A stretch of 64,000 nucleotides of DNA from contig OZ024741.1 in NCBI GenBank assembly GCA_964016885.1, positions 383,656,001-383,720,000 of the forward strand, read 5' to 3'. The DNA is from Eledone cirrhosa. Taxonomy: Eukaryota. The position numbers and the translations under genes are program-made. Below are positions 5,656 to 60,894 of this stretch, one piece after another. Numbering within the stretch: position 1 is the stretch's first letter; every line of letters starts with the position of its first letter. The notes under the pieces are model-generated. The model worked only from the letters and a program-made list of their open reading frames with translations, was not told the DNA's origin and made no database searches.

Positions 5656-6196
5656 TACTTTCACAATAAATATATAAATCTGTGTGTTCGTGTGCACACC
5701 TTTGCATTTCGCCGTATCTATTTACCGAACAGTACCCATAGATTATACATATAGTTAGGTACACACTGTGTTCACATATAAATATAAATATGTAAATATA
5801 CATTTTTGCGAAACTGACAGAATGATTGAGTACTTCTTTGAGAAGGTGATTGTGTTTATTTGAAATTATATAGCTCGTTGAATGATAGATAGATTGGAAA
5901 GTAGAGAGATATTTAGATGGATAGATTGGATGGAAGGTAGATAGAGAGATAGATAGATAAATTTCGTTATTCGCCACAAGGGCGCAAAAAATGGCGACAA
6001 ATACAAAGTGGGGAGTTTACATACATACGTGTAAAAAAGAATTTATAACAATGATAATAAATGAAACAATCGAAATCCCCAATAAGGGGAGGCGTTACAC
6101 AGGGGTTGTACACACCCCGAAAAATGTACAACCCTCATCTCCAGTAGCACGAAGAGTGAGCGCTCCCTTCCTCTCTTCTTCTTCTTCTTCCTCAAC

Positions 6197-9100: not shown

Positions 9101-9620
9101 TTGAAATTTGCCGATTAACTGTTTGAGGGTGTTACACCCCTCTCTATGGGGACATGCCCCCACATAATCCCAACGTGCATCTAGGAATCCATTCCAGTCC
9201 CCCACTGAAAGCAAGTAGCGAGACGTTCCCAGAAAAGTCTCCAGACGTTTGAAGAACTCTGGCCGCGATGTCCCGGATGGGGCATACACGACCACCAGTC
9301 TGAAAGCTCCACCTTCACCACTGCTGACGTCTAGGACCACTAGTTGACACTCCGGGTCCAGATGAACCGTCTGTGTTACGAGGTCCAGGTGTTTCCGCAG
9401 CAAAACGGCAACCCCGCCCCCACCACCCGGCTGACAGAGAGATGCGTAGATCTCAAAGTAGTCGAAGATGGGGGCCAGCTGCCGGTCGTTGTGGGTCCTG
9501 GACTCGCAAACGACTACCAGCTCCATAATGTGCGACCTAAGGTCGTTTAAGAGTTTGCCCTGTTTCCAGGGTAACCCCAGGCCGCGCACATTTACACATC
9601 CGACTCTTATATTCGCTATG
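6197..9620 (-). pseudogene. Copy A ORF2: APE endonuclease + reverse transcriptase + C-terminal CCHC, multiple frameshifts and stops
   Basis: VGDWN and SDH (EN); NFRPITMLN, KAFDRVDH, RQGCPLS (RT); CPRC..ETVAHAFVHC. Confidence 0.92.
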
Positions 9621-9661
9621 TCGTTGAGGAAGAGTTAGAAAAGAAAAGGAAAAGAATTCAC

Positions 9662-11502
9662 TTACCTTTTCGCTTCCTGGGGACCAGGCTGTACAATCTC
9701 CATGGGGATGTTGGAGGGGTTTTTGGTAGGGTGGTGGTTTCTGGCGGGGTGGGGACGGAGATGTTTGGTGGGGAGTGGATGTCTGGTAGGGTGGGGCTGT
9801 CTGGGGTGAGGGTGGGGAAACATTTTAAAAGGACGCGGTTATAGGGTTTCACGCAGGGATTACCCACGTCCTTAGGAAAGTTTTCTTTTAAAGATTTATA
9901 GGTGTCCGTAGGGACCCTAATCATCTTTAAATTAGGTATTTCCAGACAGTACGAAAAAGTTTTCCCTTCGGTTTTCGCCGAAGGGTCATTGGAAATGACC
10001 TCCATTAAAGTTTTATTGTCAGTCTTTACGTATGTATAATGTTTTTGTTGTGTTGTATTGGGGTTTTTTTCCGTTGTTCTTGTGTGAGTTTTCGTTTTGT
10101 TGTAGGTGTTTGTGTTTGGAGTGTTGTCGTTTTGTTTTCAGGAGGGGAGATTTTTGTTTGTGACGTTTGTAGTGTTTGTGTTGGTGGTTGTATGTTTGTC
10201 GTGAAGTTTGTTGGCTTTTTGTTCGTGTGGTGTCTTTTTTTTCTTTCTTTTCGAACGGAGAGGTTCTCCATCATCGTCACTTGGTCATGATGAGGGGGTC
10301 TCATCTGTTGTGACGTCTGTGTTATTGGAGAGAGGTACGTTTTGTGGAGTTGTTGTGTTTGTGGGTGTTTTACAGTGGTTTTAGGTGGAGTGGGTTGGGT
10401 GGGACTGTGTTTGGGGTTTTGTTTGGATGTACTTGTTTTTGTGTGTTGTTGTTGTTGTGGTGGTGGTGGTGGTGGTGGTGGCGGCAGTTGTGTTGCTGTC
10501 TTATGTGTTGACAGTAGTGCCTTTTTTTAAAACAGTTAGCTGAGGACAGGAAGCCCTCAGGTGACCACTGCTTAAACAGTGGTAACATGAAGGCCGCCTA
10601 CCCTCAACAGAAATGTTTATGTAGGAATTCCCATCCAGAGGCACACGTTGTTGTAGTCTAGCTATTCATTCTGGTCTCATTTGGACCAGAACTTCTAAGC
10701 TTGTACCGTTAAATATGCTCCTGGTGGACTTTCCTACCGAAAATACTGTCTTCATCAAAATTGATGAAACCAGCTAATATCCACCGGATGTTTACATTTG
10801 GTGTGATATATGTTACTCTTATTTTTGGGGTCCTGTATGTGGGGGAAAATGTGTAGAGGCGGGGGGGGGGGTACAAATTGGCGACAGAATATCTTTTGGT
10901 CGTCAATTGGTCTTTCATTAGTACTGATATACTTCCAAATAGTTTTCCTTTCTGTATAAAGGTAATGTCTTTCATGGAATTCCTTAGAACCAGCTCAATT
11001 TCATTTTGTGTTAATTGAACTGGTTTGCTGGTGGAGTTTGAGATTGTCCTAAAAATTATAGTTTATAGGACAGTTTCTCTACGCAACTCTTGAGGAGAAG
11101 TGATCTAAAAGCACCACTCTCCCCAAAAGTTACATATTGCTTGACATCTCTTAATAATTCTCTAGAATTAGAGATGTCAATATATGTGTAGCGTTCTGCA
11201 TTTTGGACAGTTTGTGCAAATGAAGTTGTTCCTTCTTCTTTGCTTGTAGAGTTGTTCGTGTTGGTGTTGTTGTCATCATTGTTGCTGTTGTTGTTCTTGT
11301 TGTCATTGTTGTTGGTGTTGTTCTGGTTGGTGTTGGTATTATTGTTCTGGTTTAACTTTGTGTTTACCTGTTTTTCAAACACAGCGACGTTCTCAACGTC
11401 TTTCAATAAGGTGAGCGGGGATGGCTGCGAGCATTGTACTCTTATTTCCTCTCCACCACCTTTCTTAGTGCGTGTGGCGTTCATTAGCGAAGCGGCGTCC
11501 AT
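9662..11502 (-). pseudogene. Copy A ORF1: Asn-rich N-terminus, gag-like zinc knuckle, fragmented
   Basis: MKDITFIQK matches copy B; EGRRPSCYHCLSSGHLRASCPQ is readable at ~10540-10605. Confidence 0.85.
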
Positions 11503-11775: not shown

Positions 11776-12039
11776 TGTTTCTTTTATTTGCCACTAGGGC
11801 ATCAAAAGTGGGACAAGTACAAAGGGGGGAGTTTACACAAAAAGGCGTCCTCAATAAGGAGGAGGCAATAACAAAATATAAAAATAAAATAAGATATAAC
11901 AAAAAATAAAATTTATAACAAAATCCTCAATAGAGAGGAGGCGCCTTGGGGGGTCGCACACACCCCCGAAAAAAGTGTGCAACCCTTCTCCTCAGGAGCA
12001 CAGAGAAGGGGTGCTCCCTTGGTCTTTCATCTTCCTCAC

Positions 12040-15000
12040 CTATAGTCTGATGTAGAGTGAAGGCCCATTCACACAGGCCATTCTCGCCACTTTCACCCAT
12101 CTTTCATAGAAACGGCTGGGGTGCAGCACCTCTCTCTCCATCCTGATCCTTCTTCCGAAATGATATCGGAAGAAACGAACCAGTTGTTGGCCAGAGAGAA
12201 AGGTGCCTGACCTCAGTCCTTTCAGACGCGTCCACCATACAACCTCTTTCGCCATGGCTATTACGCACAGAAACACCGCCTCTGCTTCATCTTTGAAGGG
12301 GGGAGGCGGCTTGATCATTACAATAGACTCGGTGGTCAACCGGATCGGTCCCACCCTTGACAGCAGTTGTTCGACATAGCCCCACAGATCGGCTACGCCC
12401 GAGCAGTGTACCAATGCGTGTGCAACGGTTTCCTCGTCGCACACGCATCTGGGACAGATCTTTTTGGCGGGGTCCCTACCCGGGCGCCCGTGTCTGTAGA
12501 GCCTTTCTCGAACGGGTAAAGCCCCTCGGTAGCACTGCCAGGCCAGGGACTTCTGGAAGTTGTCCATAGGTCCCGGGCTGAATGTCCTACCGAACAGGCT
12601 GGCCAGTTCGTCCTCCTCCATGTCTAGGGCTTCTCCGAGGGCGTCGTCGCACCTGCTGCGTACCAGCCCTCTATAGAATGTTGCGGTGGAGTCTCCACTG
12701 ATAACCGGATCCGCCTGCCAGAGGGCGGTGAGCGCCTGGGCACACTCAGTGTGCCAGGCGCCCAGTTTTCTCGGTTTTGCTTGACCCAGGATTGCAGCTC
12801 GGTGAGTGAGACGAGTCTGGGAAAGGTTCGTCTCACAAACGAGGCCCACACCGGTTGTCCGGTGAGGAATACGTAGAGGTGCCGTAGCCTTAATGCGTGT
12901 TTACGCATCATTAGCCACGGCATCCCCAGCCCTCCTTTCGAAGGGTGTTGACAGCAGATGGATCTCCTCACCATAGGAGCCCGCCTCTTCCAAAGGAATT
13001 GGAAGAGCGCGCGCTCCATCTTGGTGAGGGTTTCCCTTGGGCAGGGCACTACGGTCAGGCGGTAGTAGATGACGGACGCTATGTAGGTGTTCGCCACCTC
13101 CGCCCGACCTTTCAGGGATAGTTTGCAACTGGCCCACTTCTGGGTCAGTGCAAACACCCTGTTCGTAACCTCCGCCCAGTTTTTCTCCACCTGGAGATCC
13201 GGTCCGAACCAGACCCCGAGCAACTTCACCGGGCCCTCCGTCCAGCGTCCGACGACGCCATCGGAGGGCATCGGTCTGCCCCTCCACGTGCCGAGTTGCA
13301 AACCGATCGATTTGTCCCGGTTCAGCTTAGCCCCTGTGAACTTTTCGTACTCCTCCAGTAAGGTGCCGACCGCCTCGATTTCGGAGGCCGTCGACACCAT
13401 TACTGTCACGTCATCGGCGTAGGCCGACACCGCTTTCCGCAATCCCGGTTCCAAAGGGATGCCCTGCAACAACTCCAACTTCCGCAGTAGTGGCTCGAGA
13501 GTCAGCACATACAGAAGGGAGGAGAGAGGGCACCCTTGTCGGATGGACCGCGCGATTTTGAACGGCTCCGAGAGGTAGCCGTTCACCTTGACCCTAGAGC
13601 AGATGCGGCTGCTGTGCATAGCAGTGATCCAGCCCCTGAAAACGGGTCCGAAGCCTGCGGCCGCTAGCACCGCATCCAGGTAACCATGGTCGACCCTATC
13701 GAACGCCTTAGATTGATCCAAGTTGATCAGAGCCCCACCAAAGCCGAGTTCGTTCCCATCCCTCTCTATGATGTATCGCATGAGGTGGAGGTTGTCATGG
13801 ATGGACCTGGACGGGATAGCGCATGTCTGCGCATCTCCCACCAGGTTGCCCACGACAAGCGCCTACCTCTTTGCTAGCACCTTGGCCAAAATCTGTAACT
13901 CTGTATTTAGCAGTGTTATGGGCCTGAAGTTACTTATTTCGTCCCCCTTGTTCTCGTCCTTCCTCACTAGCGTGACTACGCCCTTTGTCACAGTACAGGG
14001 AATTCTCCCGTTCTGTTGCCAGTTGCAGTAGACCGCCTCGAGGAGATCGGGGAACAAGTCCGGCATAGCTAGATATAATTCGTAAGGAAGACCATCGAGA
14101 CCCGGGGATTTGCGTTTGCCGCATTGGCTCAGCACGTCCTCTATCTCAGCGGCCGAAATCGGCTCCTCGCAGGACTTCGCCTCCCTGTCCGAGAGGCGCG
14201 GCAGGCCGTCGAGGTATGGACCGAAGTCCACGTTCCCAACCGGCTCCCCGCCCCTCCCGAACAGTCGGGCAAAGTGCCTTTGAAAGGCCTCACACATCTG
14301 CTTAGGCTCAAGAATCGCCCGTCCATCCAGGTCTCGCAAAGACCGGATGGTGGATTTAGTTCCACTGTTGGCCTCTGTCACGCGGGCCCAGCTAACAGCT
14401 TTGGTCCCCTCGTTCCCTAGAGCACGTATTTTACTTCGGACAACGCGCCTTCGTGCTTCGCGTCGAAAAACTGGCTCAAAGTCGTTCTCGACGCTAGCAC
14501 TCTGGCCACGTCGCCGCTTCTAATTGCCTCTTCTACTCTATCTATTAGCTCCCTTTCCTTCCTATTCCTACCCGCAACTAGAACCTTTCTAAATTCTATC
14601 GAGACTACTCTAATCTCTCTCTTTAGAGATACCCACCACCTGCTGTTGACGATCGCTCCAGTCAACCGTTCCTTAACTGACGTACTAATCCGATTCCTGT
14701 AGGCTCTACTTGCCGGCAAGGACAAGTTGAGCTTCCAGTAACCGGGGCCCTGTCTATGAGTTCTGTCAAGGTTGACCATGCAGGTCACTAATTTGTGGTC
14801 TGAATAGCCAACCATGCGCATTTTTGGACAACTTAAAAAGTCCTTATCCTTAATTCTAACTAAGAACCTATCTAGGTACGACCTAGATGATCCGCTACGA
14901 TTTGCCCAAGTCCAGGTTGGCGCAGTCGGAAAATCTAGTCGATATCTATCGGCCAGGTCAAATCGACCGATTAACCCTTTGAGGCTATTACACCCCTCTC

Positions 15001-15475
15001 TATCGGGGCAGGCCCCTACGTAGTCCCAGCGTGCATCTAGGATACCATTCCAGTCCCCCACTAATAGCAAGGAGCGGGACGTCCCTAGAAAAGTCTCCAG
15101 ACGATGGAAGAAGTCCGGCCGCATTGACTCGAAAGGGCCGTAGGCGGCTACCAACCTAAACGCTCCGCCTTTACTACTGCCAAGGTCCAGAACCACTAGT
15201 CGACCCTCCGGGTCCAAATGTACCATCTGTGTTGCGAGACCCAGATGTTTTTGCAGCAGAACGACAACTCCACCCCCACCTCCGGGCTGATAGAGAGATG
15301 CGTGCATCTCAAAGTCATCAAAGGTGGGGGCCAGCTGTCGCACGTTGCTGATCCGGGCCTCGCAAATAACCATCACATCTATACGTTGTGACCTGAGGTC
15401 ATTTAAAAGCATTGCTTGCTTCCAAGTTGAGCCCAGGCCACGCGCATTTATACAGCCTACTCTTAGCATAGCCAT
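12040..15475 (-). pseudogene. Copy B ORF2 (EN-RT-CCHC); frameshifts near 14430 and 12780, stop near 13863
   Basis: INARGL, GDWN, YLDRFL, SDH; KSPGLDG, FRPITLLN, KAFDRV, QGCPLS, YADD, KLLGV; CPRC..HALVHC. Confidence 0.95.
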
Positions 15476-15499
15476 GTTGGTGGTGAAGAGAAAAGGCAC

Positions 15500-17294
15500 T
15501 TACCTCTCTGCGTCCCGGGTATCGGGCTGCACAATTTCCATTAGGGTGGGGGATGGGTTGTTGGGTGGGGTGGTGGTTTGTGGAAGTGTGGGGGCATCAG
15601 TGTGTTGTGTGGTTGGGGAGCTTGGAGTTGTGTGGGTGTTTGGGGAGGGGGTGGGATAGTTTTTTAGGAGGACGCGGTTAATGGGCCCGACGCAGGGGGG
15701 ACCCACGTCCTCTTTAAAATTGTTTTTTAAAGTTTTATAGGTGTCCTGTGGGGCCTTAATCATTTTGAGGTGGGGGAAATCCCCTACCTGGGTGAAGTTA
15801 GGCCCTTGTGTTTTTATTAGATTGTTGTTGTATACAATGTTTAACAGTTTTTTGTTTCTTGTATTTATGTATGTGTATGCATGTTTTTGTTTTTTGTGTG
15901 GTGTTTTTTGTTTGCTGTTGTTGTGAGCTCTTTTGTGTTGGTGTCAGTGTTATGTTTTGGGGAGGGTTTTTTTTCATTTGTGTGTCTGAGGTGTGTTTTC
16001 TTTTTTTTCTTTTGATTGTGTGGAAGTGCTCCTCCTCGTCTGACGACGAACTAGGGTCATCTTCCGCGTTGGAGGGGAGGGGTATATTTTCGGGTTGTGT
16101 TTGCGGTACGGGTGTTTTGGAAATTGTTTTTGTTTTTTGAGTGGAGGGGATGGGTTGGACATTGTTTTGTTTTGGTTTGAGCTGTGGTGGTTGTTTTTGT
16201 AGTGGTTGTTGTGGTGATTGTGTTGGTTGTGCAGTTGTTGGTGGTGTAGGCAGGATTGGGGTTTTCTTATTAAGTTGGGGACAGACAGCCCTCAGGTGAC
16301 CTCTGGTTCCGCAGAGGTAACACGAGGGCCGTCTACCCTCAACGGTAATGTTGATGAAGGTTAGATCATCCAGTATGACGCGTTCAGGGATCTGGGCGAT
16401 CCTTTCGGGCCTCATTTGAACTACAAGTTCGAGGCTCGTTCCACTGAACGGGTCACCCGATGCCTTTCCCATGGACACCAGCATGTCATCCTCCAGGTCC
16501 AGAAAACCTGTCAAAACCCACCATATGTCCATAATCGGCAGGATGGTGTGGATTTTTATTTTTTGTGTTCTTCTACCCATGTACGTAGGGTAGAAGGTGT
16601 ATGCGGTGGATGTGATTGGTTTGATGGACAGTTTCACTGCTGTGTCCCTGTCCTTCATGAGAATGGATAGACTCCCGTAGAGTCTATCCTTCTGAATGAA
16701 GGTGATGTCCTTCATGACGTCTTTTAAAACCAGCTCTATCTCGCTCTGTGATGGTTGAGCTGGTTTTTTACTTTTGTTCGAGATTGTCCTAAACATGACC
16801 GTGTTTAGGAGTCTCTGGCTTTTTAGTTCCGGGGGGGAATGGATTGTGAATGAACCATTTTCCCCGTACACTATATATTTTTTCGCATCCGCCAGTAGCT
16901 CCTTCGCTTTTGTTATATCTACTGGCAGATAGTCGAGGGTTTTCCTTGTCGTCTCGGCGAAGGAGAAATTTTGTTTGTTTGTGTTGTTGTTGTCGTTGGT
17001 GGTGTTGTTGTTATCATTGTTGTTGTTGTCACCGTTATTGGTCTTGTTGTTGTTGTTATTGTTATTGTTATTGGTGTTGTTTTCGTCCGTCGCATTGTTG
17101 TTGTTGTTGCTGTTGCTGCTGGTTCTTTGGGTTGTTGCTATGGCAACGTCAAGTTGTCGGTTAACAGGTGGAGAGAATTCTTCCTCTGGCTGACCTTTCT
17201 TCTTGACCTCTGCTACTGTGACAGTGGCAGGGGGAAGCTGTAAGTTCATCTTCCCCTTTCCTCCTTCGAATTTTGGTGAAGAAGCTTCGGCCAT
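15500..17294 (-). pseudogene. Copy B ORF1 nucleic-acid-binding protein (probably one frameshift near 15800-15900)
   Basis: 498-aa ORF with poly-Asn, CYLCGTRGHLRAVC knuckle, P/Q/T-rich linker and basic NLS-like patch; 15500-15763 matches copy A ORF 9658-10005. Confidence 0.9.
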
Positions 17295-20665: not shown

Positions 20666-21837
20666 GTATTTTATAATAGTTATATAGTAAAGGAATAATG
20701 GTAAACACAGTCATAGAGTCTAAAATGGGAGAAAGCAGTATATATATATACATATATATATATAAATGAAAAGTATAGAAATTGTTGTAGCAAGAAGCCA
20801 ACAGTATTCCATAATATATAAGTGACTCTATAGCGTTAAAATGGAAAAATAGTTAACGTAAGATGTGGGAAAATAATTCAAACTCAATTCAAAAAGAATC
20901 AGGATATAGATTCATCCACAGAATTTGGTGAAATCCAGGGAAAAATCAATACAGCCTTAACTCAGAATAAAATAAAGTTTAAAATACTCATCCTTCAATT
21001 TGGAAAAACTACAATGCTCGGTATAGTCTTAAAGACTATTTCACGAAACTTTACTTTCAGTGGGGATGGTTTCAGTTGGAATCGATATATATATATACGG
21101 GGTTTACGAAAATCATCCATATTAATTCATCGATCTCTTGAACAAAACTGCTTGTGGTTGATACACACATCCGCACACAAATAAAAAACTATATTTCTCT
21201 TTTCTATCCTGCCACCACCATCAACGCCGCCACCACTATCGACACAAACACTCAATTTATTTCAATAGAATGTCTGAATTTTGACACCTTAGCACATCAG
21301 CCATACTCACTGAACCCGAACGATTTCTCCCCCTCCCATTTTTTTACCATTATCGTTTCTTTGGCACAAAACTCTCTATGACAAACCAACTGGTGATATG
21401 GTCAATCATGTGAAAATGGCAATAACGAACATTCAAAGACGAACTAACGCGAAATTTGATGTACTTATTCACGTGACAGTTATCAACCAATAAAATTACA
21501 CTTATAAAAAACAACAATTTGGGCCACATGTTTAAAGGTAAATAGAATAAGAACTAGCGCGAGGTTTATTGTACTTATTCACGTGACAGTCATCAACCAA
21601 CCAAATTATTTTTTAAAAACATCAATTCGAGCCACTCTTTCCACATAAAACAGAAATAACTTTCAAACACCAACCAGATGCGAGAAAAACCACAAGCCCT
21701 TCATCTCAATTCTAATCTAGAAAAGCATAAGAACTGTGAAACCGGTAAAGGAAACAAATTCTTAAAAAGACATCAGTTGCATTTTCTATTTCTTTCCCTT
21801 ATATATATACATATACATATATACATACACACACATG

Positions 21838-22155: not shown

Positions 22156-22207
22156 CCATTACTGAGAACAATTGTTTCACTTGACGCAGATCCTCAGCTC
22201 GGATTGG
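22156..22207 (-). ncRNA. Minimal hammerhead motif, PLE-A terminus
   Basis: GAG-CUGAGGA-...-GAAAC-AAUU-GUU-CUC; same family at 39590-39638(-), 54214-54263(-), 54314-54363(+). Confidence 0.7.
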
Positions 22208-24380
22208 TAATGTTTATACGGAGCAGAAAAATGAGAAACAACCGTATGAACGTGCATGCGCAGAAATGGTCACTTCACCCAAGCGATGCAAAGCCACGGG
22301 CGAAAGGTGTAAGGGAGTTAACTGCGGTGTAACAGTTGATTAGAATATTAGAATATTGCTGTTATTCAATGCGGAGCTTTGTAGTTATGCAAGAGGTGTT
22401 TCCAGACGTGTGGACAACGTGAGAAGATTTCATATCTTGAATTTAGGCAATCACTATTGTGTAATCTCCTTAGAATATTTATCCTTTCTTCAATACACAG
22501 ACCACAAGACGGATTACCCCTTGCGTATGGCTTGGACTTAGTGATAGCTTTCCATTGAATGGCGTAGTCTATACCTTAGTCTTTGAGGGACCATACGTGG
22601 TTAGCGAGCTTCGTGAATGATCGTTTGTCCGGGTACCTAAAGTTCGACTGGTGGTTCAGGAAGCGTTCCTTAAACCGACCCTCCGCCATACCCACATAGG
22701 ATTTGACCTCCTGCGGTTTATTTGTTCGATTGGAAGTGACCACAGCTTCATAAACTACAGCGGGTGTGTTGCATTGATGTTGAAGGGGACAAGCTTCAGG
22801 CTTTCGGCAAGAGCATCCTGGTGGGGTGGTACTCTTAGGGCTGTTGGTGATATGGGCCTTCATATTTGTAGCGGAGGAGTACCCTAGTTTTACTCTGTGT
22901 CTGTTAAAGATGGAGCGGTGTTTACAACCTATGGGAAAGTGTCTATCTAAGAGGGCTAAACAATTTTGTTTTCCTACATTAGTTTTAACGTTGAGTGAGA
23001 AGGGAAGAGAGAACCAGATAGTTTGTCTATTGGTACAATTTCTTTTCTTATGGCTGTTGGTGTTAGCAGGGTAGTAAATAATTGGTTGCGAGAAGCCGCT
23101 GTTAGCTAACGCCGTGTTGTAGTAGATAGCTTTTTAGGAGAGGTTAGAGATTGTAGTACTAATATTATTTACGAAGTTTCTAAAAACAGTAGGAGAGTGG
23201 CATGAGTCCTTGTGTATGTAATTAAGTTTTTCGTTTACTTTATGGAAGGGTCTGAAGGTATGTGTGCGAAGGTCTTAATTACTGTCTAAGTAATCTACGC
23301 TAGAGAGGTTGGTAGCTATCGTTATCCTAAATCCTAAATCATAAAAAGTAAAAATTAAATATTTTCTAAACCGGTCGAGGTCGTGACGTTTATGACTCGA
23401 TGGGGTCAGACTATCGTCATGGTGTATTCCCGTGTGGAAGTCCGGGAATCTAACACGTAATATATCTAAAATAAATAAGCCAACCAAGTCGCATACGTCA
23501 GCACTGTCGAACGATCCCATGGAGACGTCGAATAGCTCTGAAGTGGTTGACTTCTTTGTCCAGGCTACTCCGTTGTTGAAGAGGAGGGTTTTCTGGCAGT
23601 GTCTAAATGATGATCTCCCTGTCTAAAACATGGACGGTAGTATAAGTGGTAGCAAAGTCCAACGCTTTGTTTAACAGGGTCTCTGAGATTGATGGGTAAA
23701 ATTCTACAGTGTCGAATTGCGTGAACTTCGCTGTTTTGGAGTTGAAGGAGTTAAACCACTGAATGACGGAGTCGTTGTTCTCCCACTGGGACAGGTTGGA
23801 CTTTGTCCTAATGGTCTTATCTATGTTCCTAAGTATAGCCTTACTGAGTAGTCCCATTTCTGTGCGTGCTGGGTTTAGTAGTCTACACGTGGGATTAGAA
23901 GCAAAGTCTACCTTGTGATCCTTCAGGGTGAGAAATGTATCACGCTTAGCTAAGCATTGTAGTTACTTATCTACCTTAAGGGCGGCAGCATGGTCTTTGG
24001 CTTCTGTATTGATGTCGTGGTAGGCCGTAGGGTTAGCCTTCTTATATTTAGAAGTTATGGCGTTACGTGCCAAGTGGCTGTAAGTAGTGTTGTCCACTTC
24101 GTAAATGTTATTGTTTTTGTCAGAAAGAACGAAAGTGTTATTGGAAGACCTAAATTTTTTAATATCATTTCTAAGTTTAGTTAGAAAGGTGCTAGAGTGT
24201 TTGCGAAAGGAAATGTTAGCGACTAAGTCAAGAAGGTCCGCTTCGAAAGGAGTGAGTTCAGTTACATTAGAAGGGTAGGCTCTCGATTTCAGGTTGAAGG
24301 TGTTATTGGTGCCTGTAAGTTTACCGTCAAAAGCCAAACTTCCACGTGATGAAAAGAATTTGCTGACCGGAGCTGGAGAC

Positions 24381-24440
<60 letters not shown>

Positions 24441-25233
24441 CAAGGATTACAGTTACGAAAGGTGTTAGGTTCACGCTTGAGAGTGGGGGAGGTACATACA
24501 TAATATTCAACATTTCTCTAAGACTAAAAGGATCGTAATAACACTGACCGTCTAACACACACGCGCACAGACACGCGTACCCACGAACACATGCACGCAC
24601 ACGCAGACATACACAAAAACACGCACGTGCTCACACACATATAGACACACGGATGCGTGTATTAAATTAAATTTCTTCCTTAAAGCTAAAAATAGACATT
24701 CCTCTTCAATTGTGTGCAATAACAGCATGACAGCTGAAGTCGAGATTTGAAAGACCTATTTTAATCCAAATTGTATTTGAATTCTAAACAGAGCATGATG
24801 AAACAAAATCTGTTAAAATTCCATCTCCATCACCGTTAGTCATTCGTATATTTCTCAAATCTGAAAATTTGAGTAATAATATCTCTACTGATGTTAAACA
24901 TTTCCTACTGATAACCTCGACTTTCCCGGGGAGTTTCACTTAAACACGTTTTGAATGAAACAACCTCTATTCTTCAACATCTGTCATTCATAAATAAATA
25001 ATCCCCAGCTGAGATTTAACATATGGGCCTTTCACGCAAAGTTTCAACTATTCCTTGTACAAATATTATGTACATGAGACAATTTAAGCAATATTTAAAC
25101 CGTTTCTTGTTTAGATTTTCAAATGGGATTCTCTTATACCTCGTAGGATCTGGTGCGTTTATTTGTATATAACTGCAGTAGATATATAAATGAATACACA
25201 TATACTTCTAAATTTGCAAACAGAGACACATTA

Positions 25234-31094: not shown

Positions 31095-31282
31095 AAATGA
31101 ATTGTCTTCAAATCCTTGATATGAGGGAGTAAATTAACGGTGTTCACTCACACAGTTTAGTCCCTCCCGTTAATTTTCTCCCTCATATCAAGGATTTGAA
31201 GACAATTCATTCTATCCGTTATTGAAATATGTATCGTGATTAAAATGATGGAAATTTATACCATGCCTTCGGATCTTTATTT

Positions 31283-31477: not shown

Positions 31478-32645
31478 TGTCCGGCGACATGCCACCACAC
31501 TTTCGGGCCATATCTGGGACCTCCAAGATAATAATATAACTTAACATCTTACTTGGAGCTTACTGTCCAGAGCTAACACTTATACGGGAGGACGCCGTCC
31601 ATGTAACTTATGCTCGGAGGAAACATTACAACTCCTAAACAAAAAAGACAAACTGTTAACTGCATGCAAACACAAATTGCGGAAGTCTTACCTCGCCCTC
31701 AAACCCCCTAACGATCCGGGTGGGTAGACTAGGGCTGAAACACCCCACTTGCCGAATAAGATAGGGAAAACCCCTACTTATATAGGTAGATGTACCTCTT
31801 TTCTTTTCCTCTATGTTTTCTCTTTCCCTTTGTCTCCTCCTATCACTTTCCACCACCGAATTTCTTCCTCGTTCGTTTCTTCGTTTTTTTTTGTTTTTTT
31901 GTTTTTTTTCCCTTTCGCCTACCCTGAGGCAGCCCATTGGGCCTCTTTAGCCTCAGTACCCCCACCCCAGTAACTTACAGATAGCATTCGCCGATTTCGC
32001 TATACTAACTATCCATAGCAGCTGTGTTAGACCCCAGAGATGTGGTATTAATTTTTAATTCTAAATTTTCAATGATTCTCATCTAGCAACTCATTCTATA
32101 GAATTGACCGAAAAAGCAGCACCAACTAAATATAGCAACTGTGTTAGACTCCTTAATTGTTGTTTCATTTCTCACTTTCCAATCCTATATTCTGATACAT
32201 CTTTCTATCATTTTTTTAATTATATTCTCTTTTATTATATTTTTCATTGTCCCCTAATCGCTTTTGATTTATTATTTCTATAACGTCCCTCCTCCACTTT
32301 CTAAAGAAACCTTTTTTCGCCAACCTCCTCTGGCCTACTTTCATACACATTCCTTAGAATTTGCCGTGTAGATTTCACCTTCTACGCTTGACCGGCTCTA
32401 CCCACTCCCCTATCGTTCTACAGGCAAGTTCAGCCATCCCCACCCCGAACGCACTGCCATGATAGACTTTTCTGTGTCTGCTACAAATTTTGACCAATCC
32501 TCTTGACAACTACAATCTTCCCATATAAGGAAGTACCCCTTGAAAAGTTCGGCTATTTATTTACCAGACTAAAAAAATTCTTACTTTAGTCCAGAAATAG
32601 CCGTCGAAACGGCTTGAGCTTTGCCGTCGGGTCATACTTTCTCCT
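31478..32645 (+). mobile_element. PLE 3' fragment (GIY-YIG C-terminus + ~0.9 kb 3' region ending in an HHR)
   Basis: TTLSGHIWDLQ..LTWSLLSRANTYTGGRRPCNLCSEE..LLNKKDKLLTACKH parallels PLE-A TKLANHVWSLK..W..CGLCIEE..LN..CPH. Confidence 0.8.
32535..32632 (+). ncRNA. Hammerhead ribozyme with U3-A8 core, long stem II and full stem III
   Basis: ACCCC-UUGAAAA-GUUCGGCUAUUU...AAAUAGCCGUC-GAAA-CGGC-loop-GCCG-UC-GGGU. Confidence 0.8.
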
Positions 32646-36216: not shown

Positions 36217-36261
<45 letters not shown>

Positions 36262-36866
36262 CTGTTTCTACTTTTGGCACAAGGCCAGCAAGTACCCAGT
36301 GTATTACTGGTACTTTATTTTATCAACCCCGTAAGGATGAAAGGCAAAGTTAACCTTGGCGGGATTTGAACTCAGAATGGCAAGGGCCGTAACTCTATGC
36401 GTCAAAGTATGGCGTCCGACCCTCTACCGATACTGCCAATTTGTTTTGCGAGGTTTTTGATATGAAATCGTGTGTCAAAACAAAAATTGTTATAATTGGG
36501 GAGGGTCATATTGTTGTAATAATATTTAAATATTGCCAGAAATAATAACAGAACACACTCACTGTTTGGTTGGTTTTCGCTTCTGTATATTTTATAACTC
36601 CATAGTTAATTCATTTGGCCATCAATGTTTATCATTGACTGACCAACGGTCAAAAATACAGATATCTGCAACATCATCAGTGGTACTATTATGTTTCTGC
36701 CTGTTGTATTGTATGTCTACGCCCTTTTAAAAAATGATAAACATTGATGGCCAAATGAATTAACTATGGAGATATAAAAGAAAAAGAAGCGAAAACAAAC
36801 CAAACAGTGAGTGTGTTCTGTTATTATTTCTGGCAATATTATTACAATATAACTCTCCCCAAGTAT

Positions 36867-39565: not shown

Positions 39566-39996
39566 AGTAGTTACACAACAGTTAGTTCACCATACCGAGA
39601 ACAATTGTTTCGCCTTCGCGGATCTTCAGCTGGGGATGTGTATGGTTATAGGAACAGGAAGGACAACTGTACGAACGCGCATGCGCAGAAACTCAGTCAC
39701 TTCACACAGACAATACTAGACTGCGTGCGAGAGGTGTAAGGGAGATAACTGCGAAAGTCCGGAAAGTTTTTAGGTTGAAAATAAAATTAAAAAAATGTTA
39801 AAATAAAATTACAAAGAATCAGTCCGGAGCCTTGTAGTTATGCAATAGATCTTTGGTGACGTGTGGACAACGTGTGAAAAATTCACTTCTTGTGTTTAGG
39901 CAATCACTATTACGTAATCTCTTTAGGATAGTTATTCGTTCGTCAATACATAAGCCACACGTCGGATTTCCCCTTGTGTATTACTTGGACTTAGTC
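39560..39996 (-). mobile_element. PLE family A-related 3' fragment with HHR
   Basis: Homologous to ~22150-22545 (AGGTGTAAGGGAG.TAACTGCG, GACGTGTGGACAACGTG, CTTGGACTTAGT). Confidence 0.85.
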
Positions 39997-42480
39997 ATAG
40001 TTCTTTCGTCACACACTCTGTGACCTCTTCAGTGATTGGGATTCCTTTCTTTGTTTTTTGTGACTCTCCTTTGTTCTGTCCTACGCCATTTTGTTTCTGT
40101 GTGTGTGTTGTGTGCTCAGTTTGCGCATGCGCCACATCCGGGTGTCTGTGTGTGTTTATGTTCATTTATTTATTTGTTTATTTACATGTTACTGGTTGGT
40201 TGTTTGTTGTATGTGTGTGTGTGTTTTCATTTTGTCCTTAATTGTAAGTTGTGATGTTGCTGTTCCACTCATATTTTCTATTTAATTTTGGTTGTAATTC
40301 TTTTATGCTTATTGCCTCTGTGATTTGTCTAAACATTGCGTCTTTTCTGTATGTAGATTCTATTTTTATTTCTATGTTCTCTAATTTACCCTTGTGTTCT
40401 ATTTTAGCATGTTGGTAGAGTAAAGATGATTCTTTACTATCTTGAAGGTCTCGCCAGTGTTCATTTATCCGTTCCCCTACACTACGAGCTGTCTCACCTA
40501 TGTACACTATATTTTTGTCTCTACATTGTCCTTCAGATGTATGTGATAGCACGGAGGACCTCCTCAGCAGAATCGGCGAGAGTAACCGATCTAGGTACCT
40601 AAAAAACTGCATAATAGGTAGTATGGATGTTGTGTCCCTGTATCCATCTATTGACGTGGATTTTGCTGTGGAGAAATGCGTAGAAATGATCAGTGAAAGC
40701 AATGTTGAGTTCCGTGGGATTGATACCAGTGAGCTGGGACTCCTACATAAACTTACCTATAGTAATAATTACCTAGACACATATGCCCTTAGCAACCTGT
40801 GCCCTACAAGACCAGCAAGAGGCAGACCACCTACCATTACCTCAATGGCCAAGAAAACCCACACAGATAGATGGAACGGGTGGACCAGAGCCATACGGAC
40901 ACCTGAAAACCACGATGAACTGAAGAAAATGATTGCACATGCGGTAGGGGCCAGCATAAAACTAACCCTTAAGGAACATATGTTCAAATTTAATGGAAAA
41001 ACATATGCCCAAGAGGAAGGAGCAGCCATTGGTGTTAACATTGCAGGCGACATAGCTAACTTATTCATGGTATGGTGGGACAGTAGACTTAAACTTAAAC
41101 TTAAAGAACAATTAGAAGACCCCCTTAACCCTGATAATGTACTCCCGCTACGTTGATGATATAAACATCGTAGTTAAGACACCCCCACTAGAGAACAGTC
41201 AGGAACTAGAGAAAAACACAATGGAAAGCATCCAGCAAATAGCTAACTCCATCCACCAGAGCATTAGAGTTACTATAGACTACCCAAGTAAACACCCCAA
41301 CCATCGATTACCTGTACTAGACACAGAGCTCTGGTTAGATACCATTAATAACAAAAAACAAATCCTCCATTCCCATTATGCCAAACCCATGACTTCCAAA
41401 CATCTGATCCACCGAAACTCGGCCGTTTCGGACCATACCAAAATCAACATACTGATTGCGGATTTGGTACGGGTGATGAGAAACGTGTCCCGCATGTGCA
41501 ACCCCGAAGAACTAGAGAGACACATACAACACTTAATCCACCGTATGCAGTTCTCTGGCTACAATCAGAGAGATAAAATCAGAGTGTATAGAGGAGCCAG
41601 AACCAAATGGGAAAAAATGGGAAATAATGACATAAATGGGACCTGCCTCTTGTATAGGAGCAAATTTTGGAATAGAATAGAAAGAACTAGGAACAAGGCT
41701 AATAGAATAAACTCATGGTATGATAGCAATAAATACCAGAGTGAATTAGCTTACAAATTTAGAAGGGCCCTAGATAAACATAAACTCAATATTAAGATAG
41801 TAGAAAGACCAGGTACCTCCGTAATAACACTTATTAGCAAGACATACCCTTTTCAAAGACCCTCATGTATACATAAGAAATGTATAACCTGTAAAATAAG
41901 CCCCCATATTAACTGTAAAACTAGAAATGTAGTGTATAGCATAAGATGTACTGAAGGACAATGTAGAGACAAAAATATAGTGTACATAGGTGAGACAGCT
42001 CGTAGTGTAGGGGAACGGATAAATGAACACTGGCGAGACCTTCAAGATAGTAAAGAATCATCTGTACTCTACCAACATGCTAAAATAGAACACAAGGGTA
42101 AATTAGAGAACATAGAAATAAAAATAGAATCTACACACAGAAAAGACGCAATGTTTAGATAAATCACAGAGGCAATAAACATAAAAGAATTACAACCAAA
42201 ATTAAATAGAAAATATGAGTGGAACAGCAACATCACAACTTACAATTAAGGACAAAATGAAAACACACATAGAACAAACAACCAACCAGTCACATGTAAA
42301 TAAACAAATAAATAAATGAACATAAACACACACAGACACCTGGATGTGGCGCATGCGCACACAACACACACACATAAACAAAATGGCGTAGGACAGAACA
42401 AAGGAGAGGCACAAAAAAACAAAGAAAGGAATCCCCAGTCACTGAAGAGGTCACAGAGTGTGTGCCGAAAGAACTATGAC
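39994..42480 (+). mobile_element. Penelope-like element family B with an inverted copy of its 3' end (39994-40536 = reverse complement of 41951-42480)
   Basis: GSMDVVSLYPSI, GAAIG..ANLFMVWWD, RYVDD, LPVLD (RT); VVYSIRC..YIGETARSVGERINEH (GIY-YIG); frameshift near 41140 and a stop near 42160. Confidence 0.93.
42438..42480 (+). ncRNA. Minimal hammerhead at the very end of PLE-B (second copy 39994-40036, minus)
   Basis: GUCA-CUGAAGA-GG(U)CACA-GAGUG-UGUGCC-GAAAG-AA-CUA-UGAC. Confidence 0.75.
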
Positions 42481-43263: not shown

Positions 43264-43767
43264 ATATATATATATATATACAAAAGCTGAAAAATATCTT
43301 TTAACATGTTAAAATAACCCCCACACACTTACAGACACATTCCTACTGACCATCCCTCTACCACGAATTACTCTGCTACACACACACACACACTTGTCTT
43401 AATAGGCATTTGAACTGTCAACAGGCTGCGGTAAGCACACACATCCCTGCTGACCATTATCACAACAACGAACCTCTTTACTACTACTACACACACACAC
43501 ACACATATTTGTTTTGAAAGACTTATTTTTCAGTGACTCCTCAATGAGCCGACACAAACCTACATTTGGCGCAAAATCAATTTTTAACATTCACATGACC
43601 TCTACCGACCAATCAAAATTGTTTTGACCACAAGAATTTTTGCAACACGAATTGGCGCAAAACTTATTTTAATACCGCTGGAGCCACTTTTTTAACATAA
43701 AAACAGGTAGAATTTCCAAAACTAATCAGATTAGAGCAAACATCACGAACGCTCTATCTGAAAATTA

Positions 43768-43803
43768 TTTTTGAAAAGCATTAGAAATGCGCAACCGGTA
43801 AAA
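43768..43803 (+). ncRNA. Decayed minimal hammerhead, U3-A8 family
   Basis: UUU-UUGAAAA-GCAU-UAGAA-AUGC-GCAA-CCGG-UA-AAA (GAAA mutated); a more decayed relative at ~21716-21751. Confidence 0.55.
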
Positions 43804-43911
43804 CTTAAAACCAAAACTGAATACTAACCAATACTATTACTAATTCTCACTTATTCCTAATTAAACTATTTTTCACTGTGAACAATTTGTCAGCATTTTC
43901 TTTTCCGTTTA

Positions 43912-44653: not shown

Positions 44654-44707
<54 letters not shown>

Positions 44708-45087
44708 AAAAAGTATGACCCCGACGGCAGAGCTCAAGCCGTTTCGACGACTATTTCTGGACTAAGAAATAGCCGTCGAAACGGCTTGAGCTCTGCCGTC
44801 GGTGTCATACTTTTTCCTATTTCCGACTCTACTACCCTAAGTATTAAGTACTCTGGTGCGATATGGTCCATTTGGTTCCTTACCACAATTCCTTTGTTAT
44901 ATATATATATATTGATATATATATATATAAATGCCATTGTTAATTAATAAATAAATTAACAAATACCTTAACACTTCACACAAAGTAAAATATTTTGTTT
45001 TAAACATTTTCTTATCCAGAAAAAAGAGAAAAAAATAAAAGGGAAAAAATATATTTTTCTTCCTAATAATTGTCTTTTTCTCCCTGT

Positions 45088-46020: not shown

Positions 46021-47088
46021 CTGTATGTGTACATATGTAAGCATCAATGTTTGAAATATTCGTTATAAGATCTTGTGGTATATTCGAGGTAATGAGAAAT
46101 ATGTTTTTGAAGCAATTAGTTCTTTCGAGATGTGTCGAGTAAATATGTCAAGTAGAAAAACATCCATGTTCTTTATAGGATGAACCAAATATGTTTGACT
46201 GGATAGCAATGGGTGTAGTGAGTACGATGGAGGATTATCTCCCTGCCTTTTACTCTTTCCTTACCTCACACACTTTCCTCCACGCACACACGCACTCATA
46301 CATACACACACACACATACATACATACACACACACCCTTACATATATATATACACAAACACACACACACTTACATACATACACACATACATATATACATA
46401 CATACATATATACATAGGTAATTACAAGTACAATCCATTAATGGAACACTATAAATATGTAAAACATTCCAAAAAATGTGCATCTAATAACTGCATATAC
46501 ACATGTACAGATACTAAGCATGTGCACATACAATTCAAAACATCCACATCCACACATACAATAACATCCATAGCTACACTTGCATGCATGCAAACATACA
46601 GTACATACATAATCTAGCTAGTTGATGTTGTGTAAATTCCAATGAGAGAGTCTTGTGTCTATGTTAGAAACCGACTCTCTCTCTATTGGGAAATAATTTG
46701 TGAAATTATAAAACCAGGAGAATATACATACATGTAAACATGTATGTGTGTGTTTGAGTATGTACGTATGAGAGGTTGGATCTGTATGTATACATGTACG
46801 TACATATTTATGAAAGTATGTTTTTTATGTGTGAGCGCATGTGTGTATGTAAGTATGTGTATAGGTAGAGAACAATATATCTAGAAATATAGCCAAATAT
46901 AAACAGATGAAGATCCTCCCAAAACATATTTTGGGAGGATCTTCAGAATATTGCAACATACAAACAAAATCTGAATAACACTCGCACATATGTATATATA
47001 TTTACACAACATGCATATATAAATATTACAGTGACACAGAGAATTAGAAAAGGAAGCATTATAAACCAGAATATATATATTTATATAC

Positions 47089-48151: not shown

Positions 48152-48224
<73 letters not shown>

Positions 48225-48411
48225 CCAGTAAGACCCCGACAGCTGAGCTCAAGCCGTTTCGACGGCTAATTCTGAGTCCAGAATTAGCCGTCGAAACGGC
48301 TTGAGCTCAGCTGTCGGGGTCTTACTGGTTCCTATTACCCACTCTACTACATCAAGTATTGAGTACTTTGGTGCGTTATGGTCCACCTGGTTCCTTACCA
48401 CACTTCCTCCG

Positions 48412-48456: not shown

Positions 48457-48550
48457 ACCCCGACGGCTGAGCTCAAGCCGTTTCGACGGCTAATTCTGGA
48501 CTAAATGAAAATTTATCCTGGTATTTAAATAGCCGAACTTCTCAAGGGGT
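48457..48550 (-). ncRNA. Hammerhead ribozyme with U3-A8 core (best copy)
   Basis: ACCCC-UUGAGAA-GUUCGGCUAUU...AUUAGCCGUC-GAAA-CGGCU-UGAGCUC-AGCCG-UC-GGGGU; stems I and III are perfect. Confidence 0.85.
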
Positions 48551-50512: not shown

Positions 50513-51526
50513 TGTTATACTTGGGGAGGGTCATATTTGTGTAATAATATTGCCAGAATTAATAACAGAACACACTCACTGTTTGGTTGGTTTTCGCTTA
50601 TATATATATATAAGGGATAACAAAATATCGAATATCGTTACAGGTAATCCAGTTAGAGGTTGTCAATACTTCTTATTATGGATAGTTTTAGCGTACGGCG
50701 TTGTTTGACTCAACAAGAGGTTTACGTAGATGACAAGTTTATGATTTAACTTGTATTCCTATGGAAGTTTATCTCGTAGTAATAAAATTGAAAAAGTGAA
50801 GAATAACATGGTCAACAGTACAAACAAGGGGATTTATTTACAGTCTAACAATTGTTTATCTGATTAAGTTGTCTAAAAATTGCTGAACACTAGAAGCAGT
50901 GCCACTCAATTTCAAATACGATGCTAGCTCAATCAGATCATCAGAAACTGTTACAAAAAATATATATAACTGGCAAATTTACAAATTCAAATTACATCAT
51001 CAATAATAATATTAATAATAAAGATAGGGAGAGAGAAAAAGAAAGAAAGGGAGATAGATAAAGGAAAGAAAGAAAGAAAAAGAGAAATAGAAAGAAGAAG
51101 AAAAAGGAGAAATGAATACAGAGAAAGATATAGAGAGAAGAAAATATATGGATAAATGATAATAGAAAGAGGAGAGATATGCATGAGGAGAAATAACGTA
51201 GGAAAGAAAGAGCAATAGAGGGAAAATAATGATATCAACAATAAATGAATAAACGTTAATACATCTATCTTTATTATTAATATTGGCAGTATCGGTAGAG
51301 GGTCGGACGCCATGCTTTCCAGCATAGTTACGTCCCTTTACGATCTGAGTTCAAATCCCGCCGAGGTTGACTTTGCCTTTCATCCTTACGGGGTCGATAA
51401 AATAAAGTACCAGTAATGCACTGGATAATTGCTGGCCTTGTGCCTAAAGTAGAAACAATTATTAATATTATTATTGATGATGTAATTTGAATTTGTAAAT
51501 TTGCCGGTTATATATATCTTTTTCTA

Positions 51527-56469: not shown

Positions 56470-57949
56470 GATTTGATATTACAGCTCTACTGCAGTGGGC
56501 AATTTTCTTTTATCCTGCAAAAGCATCCTGAAACTTCATCTGATTTGTTTTTAGCAGGTAACTTTGACCTAATGGAGAGGCTGCAGGAATAGTTTATCTT
56601 CAGAAAGCGCCTACTGAATATTTTACTGTACCTATGTTGTCGGGGAAAATACCTATCTAGCAGATCTAAGTACTACTTCCGTACTTTACTCTTAATATTA
56701 ATGGAGTAGGGGTGAACCAGATTATTTTTCAATGTCTATATTTATTTTTAGGTTTGTTGAGTGGATTGGTGATAGGGTATGTACTTAGTCATGCTGTCGA
56801 GAAGGATATTGTTTTAGTAGAATGCTGCCTTAACAAATATCTACTTAGTTGATGAAAGGTTACATATCGTAAATTCTTTCATTTCCACTCATCATCGTTT
56901 TCTCAATATTCGTCCTGTCATGTAACCTATAACTTTGAATGCCTTTAAAACATTATCTACTGTCCTTTAGTGCATAAAAAAGACTAATATTAGGGACTAC
57001 ATTTTTAAAGACTATGCGGGGTAGCAAGATCCTCTAATAGTAAATATATTTCGTTTTCCTGTTAGGTTTATGGTATGGTTTATACGCACCTGAGACCAAG
57101 TCTGATTTAACGTCAATGAAATTAGCATTAGAGAGGTTCGTATCTATAGCATTTCAAAGTCCCAGTGCGCGAAAGGCTTCTATTAAATCTTTGTGGAACC
57201 ATTCCAGGGAATGATCATTGCAATTGTGTGATAAAGAAAGGTCATCGTCTCACTATAGACCAATATAGAATGGATGGGGAATTTTCACTTAGTGTTTGGA
57301 GGATATATAATTCAACAGGTCACACACATCGGCACTGTCATACGGTCCCATCGAAACGTCAAAGGAATCTTCTGGATCGGATTTTTAACCTATACACCCC
57401 CATTATCAAACAGGAAGGCCCACCCGGCATGCATAATTATTTCTAATTTCTGGTCGTTAATGTAACTAAAACTACGGATAAACTCCAACGCTTTGTCTAA
57501 AAGTAACTTAGAAATGGAGGGTTAACCATCTATTATATCGAACTGAATGAACCTACTTGTAATTTTCGAAGAAATGTCTCTGAGCCAGGATATGACAGTA
57601 AGAAGCTAGTGCTGTTCTTAATGCGTACGTTAATCTCTAAGAATTTTTACTAGATAGTCCTAATTTTGTATTAACGGGGGTTATCAATCTACAAGTAGGC
57701 CTGTGTATGAAGTCTGACCTAATGTCTTACATTAGGATGAAGGTGTTAGCTAAGCATCCTACTCTAGTGTCGATCTTTTATCACTTACATCATTAATTTT
57801 GTTACAACTGTCAGGAATAGCCACCTGGTATTTATTAGTTACATTGTTAAGAATAAGTTGATTATATTTATCTTTATAGACTTCGTGTAGGTTTTGCTCT
57901 TTTTTTTATATATTTTCAAGTCTATTTTATATGAAACCAAGGTTAGAGC

Positions 57950-59380
57950 TATCACTACCAACCATGCAGAGAACAGAATTCTACATGGGTTGAACTCATG
58001 GAATAAATCTGAACTCAAGAAACGAGCTTTTAAAGGCCTGTTTACACTTCAAGAGATATTTGCTTTCATCATTAAAAGCTACACACAATTAGAGATGGAA
58101 ATATATCCTGCGCTGGAATTTGTAACAAAGAACGCGTAAGCAGGGAATATAACATCTGTATTAGAAAGATATTGTCTTCTGAACTTTAGGTGCACAACAA
58201 ATCAATAGACCACAATGCGTTTGCTATACCTGAGCTGGCACCAACATTTGGACTATTTGGCTGGACGCTAAATGAGTTCCGAGTCATTGATGTTAATACC
58301 CCAAAAGTTCTAACCGGCACCTGAAATTTCTAAAACATCAGTGATATATTTCAGCTCTACCTGAAAAGTAAAATGGGAGGCAGATGCTTAGCATTTAGAA
58401 TTTTAGTACCGCATCATATTACCCCGACAACATCTATGAAATTAGAAAGTATAGACGTCGATCTAAAGAACAAGCGTTTCTAAATGAGACAGATAATATC
58501 ATGAGAGCTGGCAAGGAGCTCCTTGGGAAATACTCCCTGTATAATAACCAAAATCTCACAATGAGGGAAAATGCACAGCAAAATGGCAATGAATCCACGA
58601 ATGAAATGTTGCATGCTTAGCAAAAACTTATGCAAGCCAATATTACCAAAATGCTTTAAAGTGAGAGTAATATAGATAAGCAAACCAGTCTATCTTGGAC
58701 CACCAACCAGTACATTAGTCCTCATTTTGAAGGATATGCGTTTTCATTCCAAGACCAAAAATTACCAATGAAATACTTAATCCACAAAAATGACAGGCAA
58801 AACAGGCGAGCAAAACACCTAAATGTGCAACAGATGCAGGCTCTACGGAATAAACATCGACGATCTTACTCACATCATAAGTAGCTGTCCAACGATGTCA
58901 TCCCGATACTATCTGCCTTTGGGGCATGTTTTAGAGTTCAAAGCACAATACAATGAAATCCTTAGAAAGGACAGCAATGAGGATAAACATAGAAACCGTT
59001 ACTGTGATGTGTATGGTATATGCATACATATTATGAAAGAGTACTGGTGAAATGTTCCTGTCAAACCCCCAACAAAATACAAACATAACAGACGAGATAT
59101 AGTGATATAGGACAGAGAAAAAAAAGGTATATCATTAGGGGAAATCAGCTACCCAGCAGATGTCAATATAATGCTAAAGATTAGGGAAAAGTAGAACATT
59201 TAGGGAACAAATGGGGAACCGGCAGATACCTTTAGATTCGTACCTGCGATCATCAGTGCTCTGGGATATGTTACTAACTGCATCGGTACACATCATGAGA
59301 ATCTTAGAAAAGGCACAGCTAGTTAGGACGTTGTACGTATAGTACGTTAATCGAACTGTAGAGATATGTAAAAACCTGTC
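57950..59380 (+). mobile_element. Decayed R4/NeSL-like LINE 3' part (restriction-like endonuclease)
   Basis: FAIPELAPTFGLFGWTLNEF, LYLKSKMGGRCL, CRL..DDLTHIISSCP..Y..H, HNRRDIVI.D..EISYP. Confidence 0.75.
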
Positions 59381-59595
59381 AGATAATCAGCATGTAGTAA
59401 CTGGATATACTCTTGTATAGATACAGAAAAATATGCACTGTTACCATGCAACTCAAAACATACAGATCCACACATACAATAATACCCGTACCTGCACAGA
59501 GAGAAAGAGGGAGAAAGCGGGAGAGAGAGAGCCATGTACACCTATTTATCAAGTTTATATTGTCGTAATTTCAAAGAAAGAGTCTTCCTTCGATG

Positions 59596-59685
<90 letters not shown>

Positions 59686-59726: not shown

Positions 59727-60009
59727 CACTAATACATTTCACTATCATTTGATAATGCATATAAATGCAGAAACCGGTAATAGACAATAATTAAATATAT
59801 AAATAGATAAATAAATGCCATTGTTAAATAAAAAATAAATCAACTAATACCTTAACACTTCACACAAAGTAAAACATTTCGTTTTAATCATTTTCTAACC
59901 CAGAAAAAAGAGTGAAATAACAACCCAACCAGGAACTGGGCATATCAGAGTATTGACAAAATTATACACCTCAACAACATATGTACTTGTCTATACCACA
60001 CTAATTCGG

Positions 60010-60210: not shown

Positions 60211-60281
<71 letters not shown>

Positions 60282-60480
60282 GTGAGGTTTTTTTACGAAA
60301 TGAAAAATAACCGAGGTGTCCTACACGAATGAAAGTATAAAGAAAAAAAGATGAAATCGAAAATGCAACTGGAGTCTTATTTTTAAGAAAATATATTTAT
60401 TTGGTTCCTTTACCGGTTTCGCAGTTTTTCTGCTTTTCAAAAGTAGAGTTGAGATGGAGGGTCGGTGGTTTTTCTCACAT

Positions 60481-60517
60481 CTTTTGAAAAGCAGAAGAAC
60501 TGCGAAATCGGTAAAGG
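60481..60517 (+). ncRNA. Minimal hammerhead, U3-A8 core (inverted partner at 60407-60443)
   Basis: CUU-UUGAAAA-GCAG-AAGAA-CUGC-GAAA-(U/C)CGG-UA-AAG. Confidence 0.75.
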
Positions 60518-60894
60518 AACCAAATAAATATATATATTTTCTTAAAAATAAGACTCCAGTTGCATTTTCGATTTCATCTTTTTTTCTTTATATATATATA
60601 ACATCGAAACAAGACTCTTTCTTTGAAATTACGACAACATAAACTTGATAAATATGTGTGCATGGCTCTCTCTCCCGCTTTCTCCCTCTTTCTCTCTGTG
60701 CAGGTACGGGTATTATTGTAGTGTGGATCTGTATGTTTTGAGTTGCATGGTTACAGTGCATATTTTTCTGTATCTATACTACATGCTGATTATCTGAAAG
60801 GTTTTACATATCTCTACAGTTCGATTAACGTACTATACGTACAACGTCCTAACTAGCTGTGCCTTTTCTAAGATTCTCTCTATATATATATAAG

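Follow-up and report, generated by a model that had tools for sequence, protein, structure and literature searches.

The closest described counterparts of the motif analysed here are the minimal hammerhead ribozymes with a U3-A8 core in Schistosoma mansoni, ~1,300 of which are reported in the accessible portion of Cervera and De la Pena (2014, PMC4209133). Fig. S3 of that study aligns two distinct S. mansoni U3-A8 motifs, one of them in a Cercyon Penelope-like element (PLE), beside a similar C3-G8 motif of S. japonicum; a U3.G8 motif of Saccoglossus is also listed. Opposite-strand pairs 100-700 bp apart are described among the S. mansoni minimal motifs, and the published minimal PLE hammerheads have low activity even as dimers. 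Natural U3-A8 hammerheads were earlier stated to be active in vitro (Perreault et al. 2011, PMC3088659); they carry the same compensatory core pair as the present locus, but the accessible portion of that paper does not describe them as minimal PLE motifs. In PLE insertions, the 5' end is truncated, a truncated copy lies next to the element in inverted orientation, a tail of 30-40 bp is confined to one end, and (TA)n serves as the target (PMC8557442, accessible portion). A literature search with U3-A8 as a term returned PMC4209133 alone, and Lunse et al. may already cover such variants. Searches on octopus, Penelope and hammerhead ribozymes led to no description of such a family in the accessible portions of PMC8557442 and PMC6962438. 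The U3-A8 core of PLE hammerheads, in print since 2011 in general and since 2014 for PLEs, is not new; the family described below is an added member, which contributes a further host group. A sequence-only reading of this DNA had proposed that the core arose or persisted in at least two PLE lineages. This broad inference holds, with two U3-A8 families, but was already in print (PMC4209133, Fig. S3), and the details offered in its support are weaker than claimed.

The window, which is the whole stretch of Eledone cirrhosa DNA analysed (64 kb), contains a minimal type I hammerhead with a U3-A8 core, a GUA triplet and the stem III sequence ACCGGU at 60408-60443 on the minus strand, and a mirror copy at 60481-60516 on the plus strand. 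We consider it likely that this is the hammerhead of the 3' pseudo-LTR (pLTR) of a PLE or of a non-autonomous derivative, belonging to a U3-A8 family, and that the copy at 60 kb is a dead stub. In the minus arm, stem I consists of 3 bp (CUU 60443-60441 with AAG 60410-60408). The box UUGAAAA occupies 60440-60434, with U3 at 60440 and A8 at 60435, and is followed by a 4-bp stem II (GCAG/CUGC, 60433-60421), GAAA (60420-60417), the self-complementary ACCGGU (60417-60412) and A17 (60411); the predicted cut site lies between 60411 and 60410. The plus arm has the same layout (U3 at 60484, A17 at 60513), with AUCGGU instead of ACCGGU as a result of a C>T change at 60508 that weakens stem III. Since C is found at this position in 96-97% of aligned reads or contig depth, the T is a private change.

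The core boxes N3-UGAN-N8-A, GAAA and UH, the 3-8 pair and the stems are complete in both arms, as the sequence-only reading had claimed for 60407-60517; the CCGG it gave for both arms is present in the minus arm (within ACCGGU), while the plus arm reads UCGG. Also present, as in minimal hammerheads, are the closure of stem II by G10.1-C11.1, a short stem I, which is marginal, and a stem III palindrome through which a dimer could form. G10.1 directly follows A9, so that the usual extra unpaired base between 9 and 10.1 is absent. This was not counted as excluding, because some published minimal hammerheads also lack that base (PMC4209133). In the minimum-energy co-fold of two minus-arm copies, stem II and an intermolecular ACCGGU helix are predicted and stem I is unformed, while the monomer folds of both arms are unremarkable (z -1.3 to -1.5). 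The stem III duplex is calculated at -8.3 kcal/mol for the minus arm compared to -3.1 kcal/mol for the plus arm. The earlier suggestion of suitability for dimers is supported as regards the layout, which is of the minimal, dimer type. A dimer in cis between the two arms is excluded because their motifs are on opposite strands. By analogy with published work on related motifs, the tandem transcript of an active parent would contain two copies on the same strand, whose ACCGGU palindromes would pair and thereby build stem III; the dimer would then cut after GUA and trim the element RNA.

The S. mansoni motifs Sm3 and Sm4 resemble the present one in being type I, with a U3-A8 core, a short stem I and a palindromic stem III region, and in occurring mostly solo; their boxes, UUGAUAA and UUGAAAA, are the same as those at 59749 (see below) and 60440, respectively (PMC4209133). 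The motif here differs from Sm3 and Sm4 (the latter in a Cercyon PLE) in its 6-nt stem III palindrome, in having A at N17 and in the absence of a base between 9 and 10.1, as well as in its animal group and in having no known parent ORF. A small self-complementary stem III insert that lends itself to dimers, as here, is shared by the PLE hammerheads of Aedes aegypti, Drosophila willistoni, Saccoglossus kowalevskii (motif 2) and Marsupenaeus japonicus (PMC4209133, Fig. S3), some of which also have A at N17 and no bulge after A9. However, these variants have C3-G8 cores.

The minus-arm motif belongs to a 5'-truncated copy of a high-copy repeat (60276-60482, minus strand) that ends at (TA)n. An inverted repeat spans 60336-60592, its arms (60336-60443 and 60481-60592) being separated by a 37-nt spacer; the plus-strand arm is an inverted duplicate of 60443-60336, with 2 substitutions in 108 aligned bases and one 4-nt indel. 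It meets, at a TA-run junction, an inverted duplicate of the flanking sequence 59297-59608, located at 60589-60878 on the minus strand (7 substitutions in 290 aligned bases), which is probably a product of the same event. Both arms share, at the mirrored positions 60387 and 60541, a base that is in the minority in sequencing run X1 (~4-5% of contig depth) and commoner in RAD reads. Both arms go back to a single local inverted duplication and so are not independent of each other. An extension of ~60 bp at the 3' end (60276-60335, minus strand) is found in the minus arm only; it is absent from the plus arm and from the copy at 21 kb, is covered by family reads, and looks like the tail that PLE insertions bear on one side. 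The simplest origin of the arms would be a template switch during or after insertion: a 5'-truncated copy may have inserted at (TA)n, and template switching would then have produced an inverted duplicate of its terminal 108 bp and of ~290 bp of the DNA beside it.

Because the motifs point away from each other, a read-through RNA would bury each of them in a hairpin of ~110 bp. Such RNA is predicted to fold at -165 and -156 kcal/mol, none of 200 shuffles being as stable as -165 kcal/mol, and the modelled probability of stem II in it is below 1e-13 for either strand. Cleavage here would require a transcript starting inside the 37-nt spacer and a partner in trans; thus, the 60 kb locus is probably inert and most likely not cleaved. 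Among the 150 of 292 Rfam matches listed, the one over the locus is a plant miRNA model below threshold, which reflects no more than the inverted repeat.

The window holds two further copies of the family, both on the plus strand. A longer, decayed copy at 21090-21800 (5' boundary approximate) ends in (TA)n; in its motif (21718-21747), which carries U4A, stem I is broken and pair 10.4-11.4 has become a U.C mismatch. The copy at 43282-43907, which lies between (TA)n runs, represents a divergent subfamily, and its motif (43771-43800) has GCAA in place of GAAA (A13C, at 43792). Loose read ends at 60482 run on into sequence found upstream in the 21 kb copy, which identifies the 60 kb copy as 5'-truncated. 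The family is of high copy number, with matches in 4 of 8 listed public runs (reads less than 80% alike were left out): 7438 contigs in run X1, which may come from the source sample, 3412 reads in X6 and 3694 in X7. Run X4, under a different organism label, gave a single contig, whose 13 substitutions spare the core. The motif scan found 0 loci in viral contigs, and the family-specific pattern 0 loci in prokaryote genomes. Twelve metagenome loci from the motif scan were taken as chance; by eye, none of the 12 combines a stem I of at least 3 bp with a stem II of at least 4 bp.

U3 and A8 are kept, and paired, in 4 of 4 motif copies in the window, two of which stem from one duplication event. 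Among thousands of family reads, neither position appears in the 40 listed of 155 variant rows, which contain no U3C and no A8G; the least frequent of these 40 reach ~22% in some read set, and those beyond them are probably rarer. U3-A8 thus appears to be the main state of the family, and the sequence-only reading was right that it is no one-off decay product. Four of the same 40 rows fall inside the motif, all outside the core. One is at a loop base; the others are 10.4 G>U, at 30-34% of RAD reads, 11.1 C>U, at 20-25%, and 15.3 C>U, at 10%. A sharp drop in read depth at 60445-60449, upstream of stem I, was considered as a trace of ribozyme-linked truncation and rejected. A restriction site is the likelier cause, since 60448 G>A creates AATT and the libraries are RAD.

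It is unlikely, in our judgement, that the motif is a fossil, descended from a PLE pLTR but with cleavage lost before or during amplification, neutral since then, and with U3-A8 fixed by AT-biased drift. Two of the three independent copies in the window (21718 and 43771) have broken cores, which speaks for that account, and the frequent 10.4 G>U change appears to be uncompensated, with no row for a change of its partner among the 40 listed of 155. Neither covariation nor core sparing is significant. The core, 11 of 207 positions, is hit by none of 24 listed variant rows (P 0.25). The stems do show the two double changes noted earlier in the relative at 43768, C-G/U-A at the third pair of stem I and G-C/U-A at 10.4-11.4; but both changes come from the 43771 copy alone, a single copy with a broken core, and both pairs are broken in the 21718 copy. 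Over four sequences (two of them from one event), 2 of 11 pairs are doubly changed, a score matched by 63 of 500 shuffles. Against a fossil, U3 and A8 have both changed and still pair in all 4 copies in the window, and the motif has been retained between subfamilies whose downstream sequences fail to align. Similarity between the 60 kb and 43 kb copies ends immediately past the hammerhead, which is their best-kept block (25 of 30 positions identical, compared to 29 of 43 in the upstream flank and 16 of 56 in the downstream one); the excess has P 0.0003 against both flanks, but is not significant when only the upstream flank is compared (P 0.18 and 0.07). Decay after insertion is, moreover, expected for the genomic copies of any retroelement.

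The case for the preferred reading, a PLE pLTR or a non-autonomous derivative of one, rests on anatomy: the 60 kb locus is truncated at its 5' end, has a truncated copy next to it in inverted orientation and a tail on one side, lies at a microsatellite target, and has its hammerhead near the 3' end. These features correspond to those of described PLEs, whose tails measure 30-40 bp compared to ~60 bp here (PMC8557442). No link to a parent PLE ORF was found in the window. Six-frame reading of the 21, 43 and 60 kb copies, all short or truncated, reveals no ORF; tblastn with 35 PLE-like proteins, a narrow set comprising relatives of one neighbouring PLE, gave a best E of 0.6 near family copies; a profile HMM built from the same proteins gave nothing under i-E 1 near them; and the endonuclease piece of the neighbouring PLE alone gave no matches. 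This neighbour, the recognisable PLE of the window, consists of frames at 40446-42162 flanked by C3-G8 motifs at 40032 and 42442, with a 545-bp inverted head. It has a weak GIY-YIG match (E 0.0012, below the cut-off, on the inverted copy), and its best relative (63% identical) is labelled Octopus vulgaris. Because its DNA has no similarity to the 60 kb family beyond (CA)n, it is not the parent; when the DNA of the family was compared with five other 3' regions that carry hammerheads in the window, (CA)n matches were likewise all that appeared. A second, decayed series of PLE-like ORFs was observed at 22160-24517 (minus strand; weak profile match, i-E 7e-4), with a 3' region that resembles 39593-40007 (71%).

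Copies of 630-710 bp without an ORF could also derive from a hammerhead-bearing SINE or retrozyme-like element that used borrowed enzymes and had no autonomous parent with such a 3' end, an origin that we regard as improbable and that differs from a PLE or its non-autonomous derivative mainly in autonomy. PLE-derived repeats with tandem and solo hammerheads have been described as non-LTR retrozymes (bioRxiv 10.64898/2026.07.22.740005, accessible portion), which, like the present family, are non-coding, carry type I hammerheads and often persist as monomeric remnants. They are defined, however, by head-to-tail tandem units, and self-comparison of the window revealed no tandem hammerhead units; 5' truncation and an inverted head are, in addition, typical of PLEs themselves (PMC8557442).

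The motifs of both arms were matched by a descriptor requiring a stem I of at least 3 bp, a stem II of at least 4 bp and a self-complementary stem III of at least 6 nt, which was run over the 64-kb window and over 200 block-wise dinucleotide shuffles of it. With the palindrome, the window contains 2 U3-A8 matches (one event) and none of the shuffles contains any; without it, 20 of 200 shuffles have at least one (mean 0.115). A chance origin is therefore unlikely, and the palindrome carries much of the weight. It is hardly credible that the motif is a look-alike in an AT-rich repeat. In favour of that reading, A-rich DNA often contains UUGAAAA and GAAA, stem I lies within U and A runs, shuffles without the palindrome do produce matches and no hammerhead family is among the 150 of 292 Rfam matches listed; against it, the full descriptor has no shuffled match, and position and context fit PLE hammerheads, the C3-G8 motifs of the window being in a like setting, some beside a PLE ORF.

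Several other hammerheads are present in the window. Two with the U3-A8 layout and a long branched stem II, at 32536-32631 (plus strand, box at 32540) and 48549-48458 (minus strand, box at 48545), are partners in a separate, (TA)n-flanked repeat family. They have a stem I of 4-5 bp, a stem III of 5-6 bp and a GUC triplet (by eye and fold), are not minimal, and, their stem III being full, may possibly be able to cut as monomers. Their best match to the 60 kb family is 12 nt long (E 0.038) and lies outside the ribozyme, with none in the ribozyme region. Truncated palindromic relatives of these two were noticed at 44706-44817 and 48222-48331. Another minimal U3-A8 motif (59747-59781, plus strand, box UUGAUAA at 59749) has a 5-bp stem II, ACCGGU and a 2-bp stem I. 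Like motif 3 of S. mansoni, it combines UUGAUAA with a U-A closing pair in stem II (PMC4209133). It is 78% identical to the 60 kb motif over 54 nt (E 1e-4, from a small search and in part owing to the shared core), and is possibly a distant relative of that family. The 60 kb family was earlier described as a second, unrelated one; we guess that the first was the 32540/48545 family, and if the motif at 59749 was meant, the word unrelated is doubtful.

Minimal hammerheads with C3-G8 cores are located at 40032 (minus), 42442 (plus), 22073 (minus), 60015 (plus) and 37046 (minus), the last with U4C. A loose U3.G8 candidate at 31111 was rejected by eye as the product of a palindrome. Up to three U3-A8 layouts share the 64 kb with at least four motifs of the C3-G8 kind. 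Whether U3-A8 replaced C3-G8 several times independently in this genome is doubtful, and we put it forward tentatively; if true, with repeated switches through a U3.G8 wobble and cleavage kept, it would provide a natural, replicated test of compensatory evolution in an active site. High-copy families of both kinds in one genome could allow core switches to be counted and cleavage to be compared like for like.

The window contains further repeats. A decayed non-LTR element at ~57900-59608 (plus strand), with a CCHC knuckle and what looks by eye like a restriction-like endonuclease, is presumably R4/Dong-like; it has a relative at 46438-46666, and its last 310 bp are those duplicated in inverted orientation at 60589-60878. 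Two tandem copies at 6035-9927 and 11886-15766 (minus strand; 79% identical) have endonuclease-like and RT-like frames by eye, and we take this element to be probably a LINE of the L1/Tx1 type. A SINE-like repeat of ~185 bp occurs in at least six copies (2394-2578, 4049-4234, 4384-4525, 4973-5097, 36257-36440 and 51282-51466). Many short near-perfect palindromes are found, at 27070, 30974, 36487, 38142, 51761, 51836, 54190, 56298 and 61254; they give spurious Rfam miRNA matches, and insertion of PLE-type ends together with inverted heads would be expected to leave them in such numbers.
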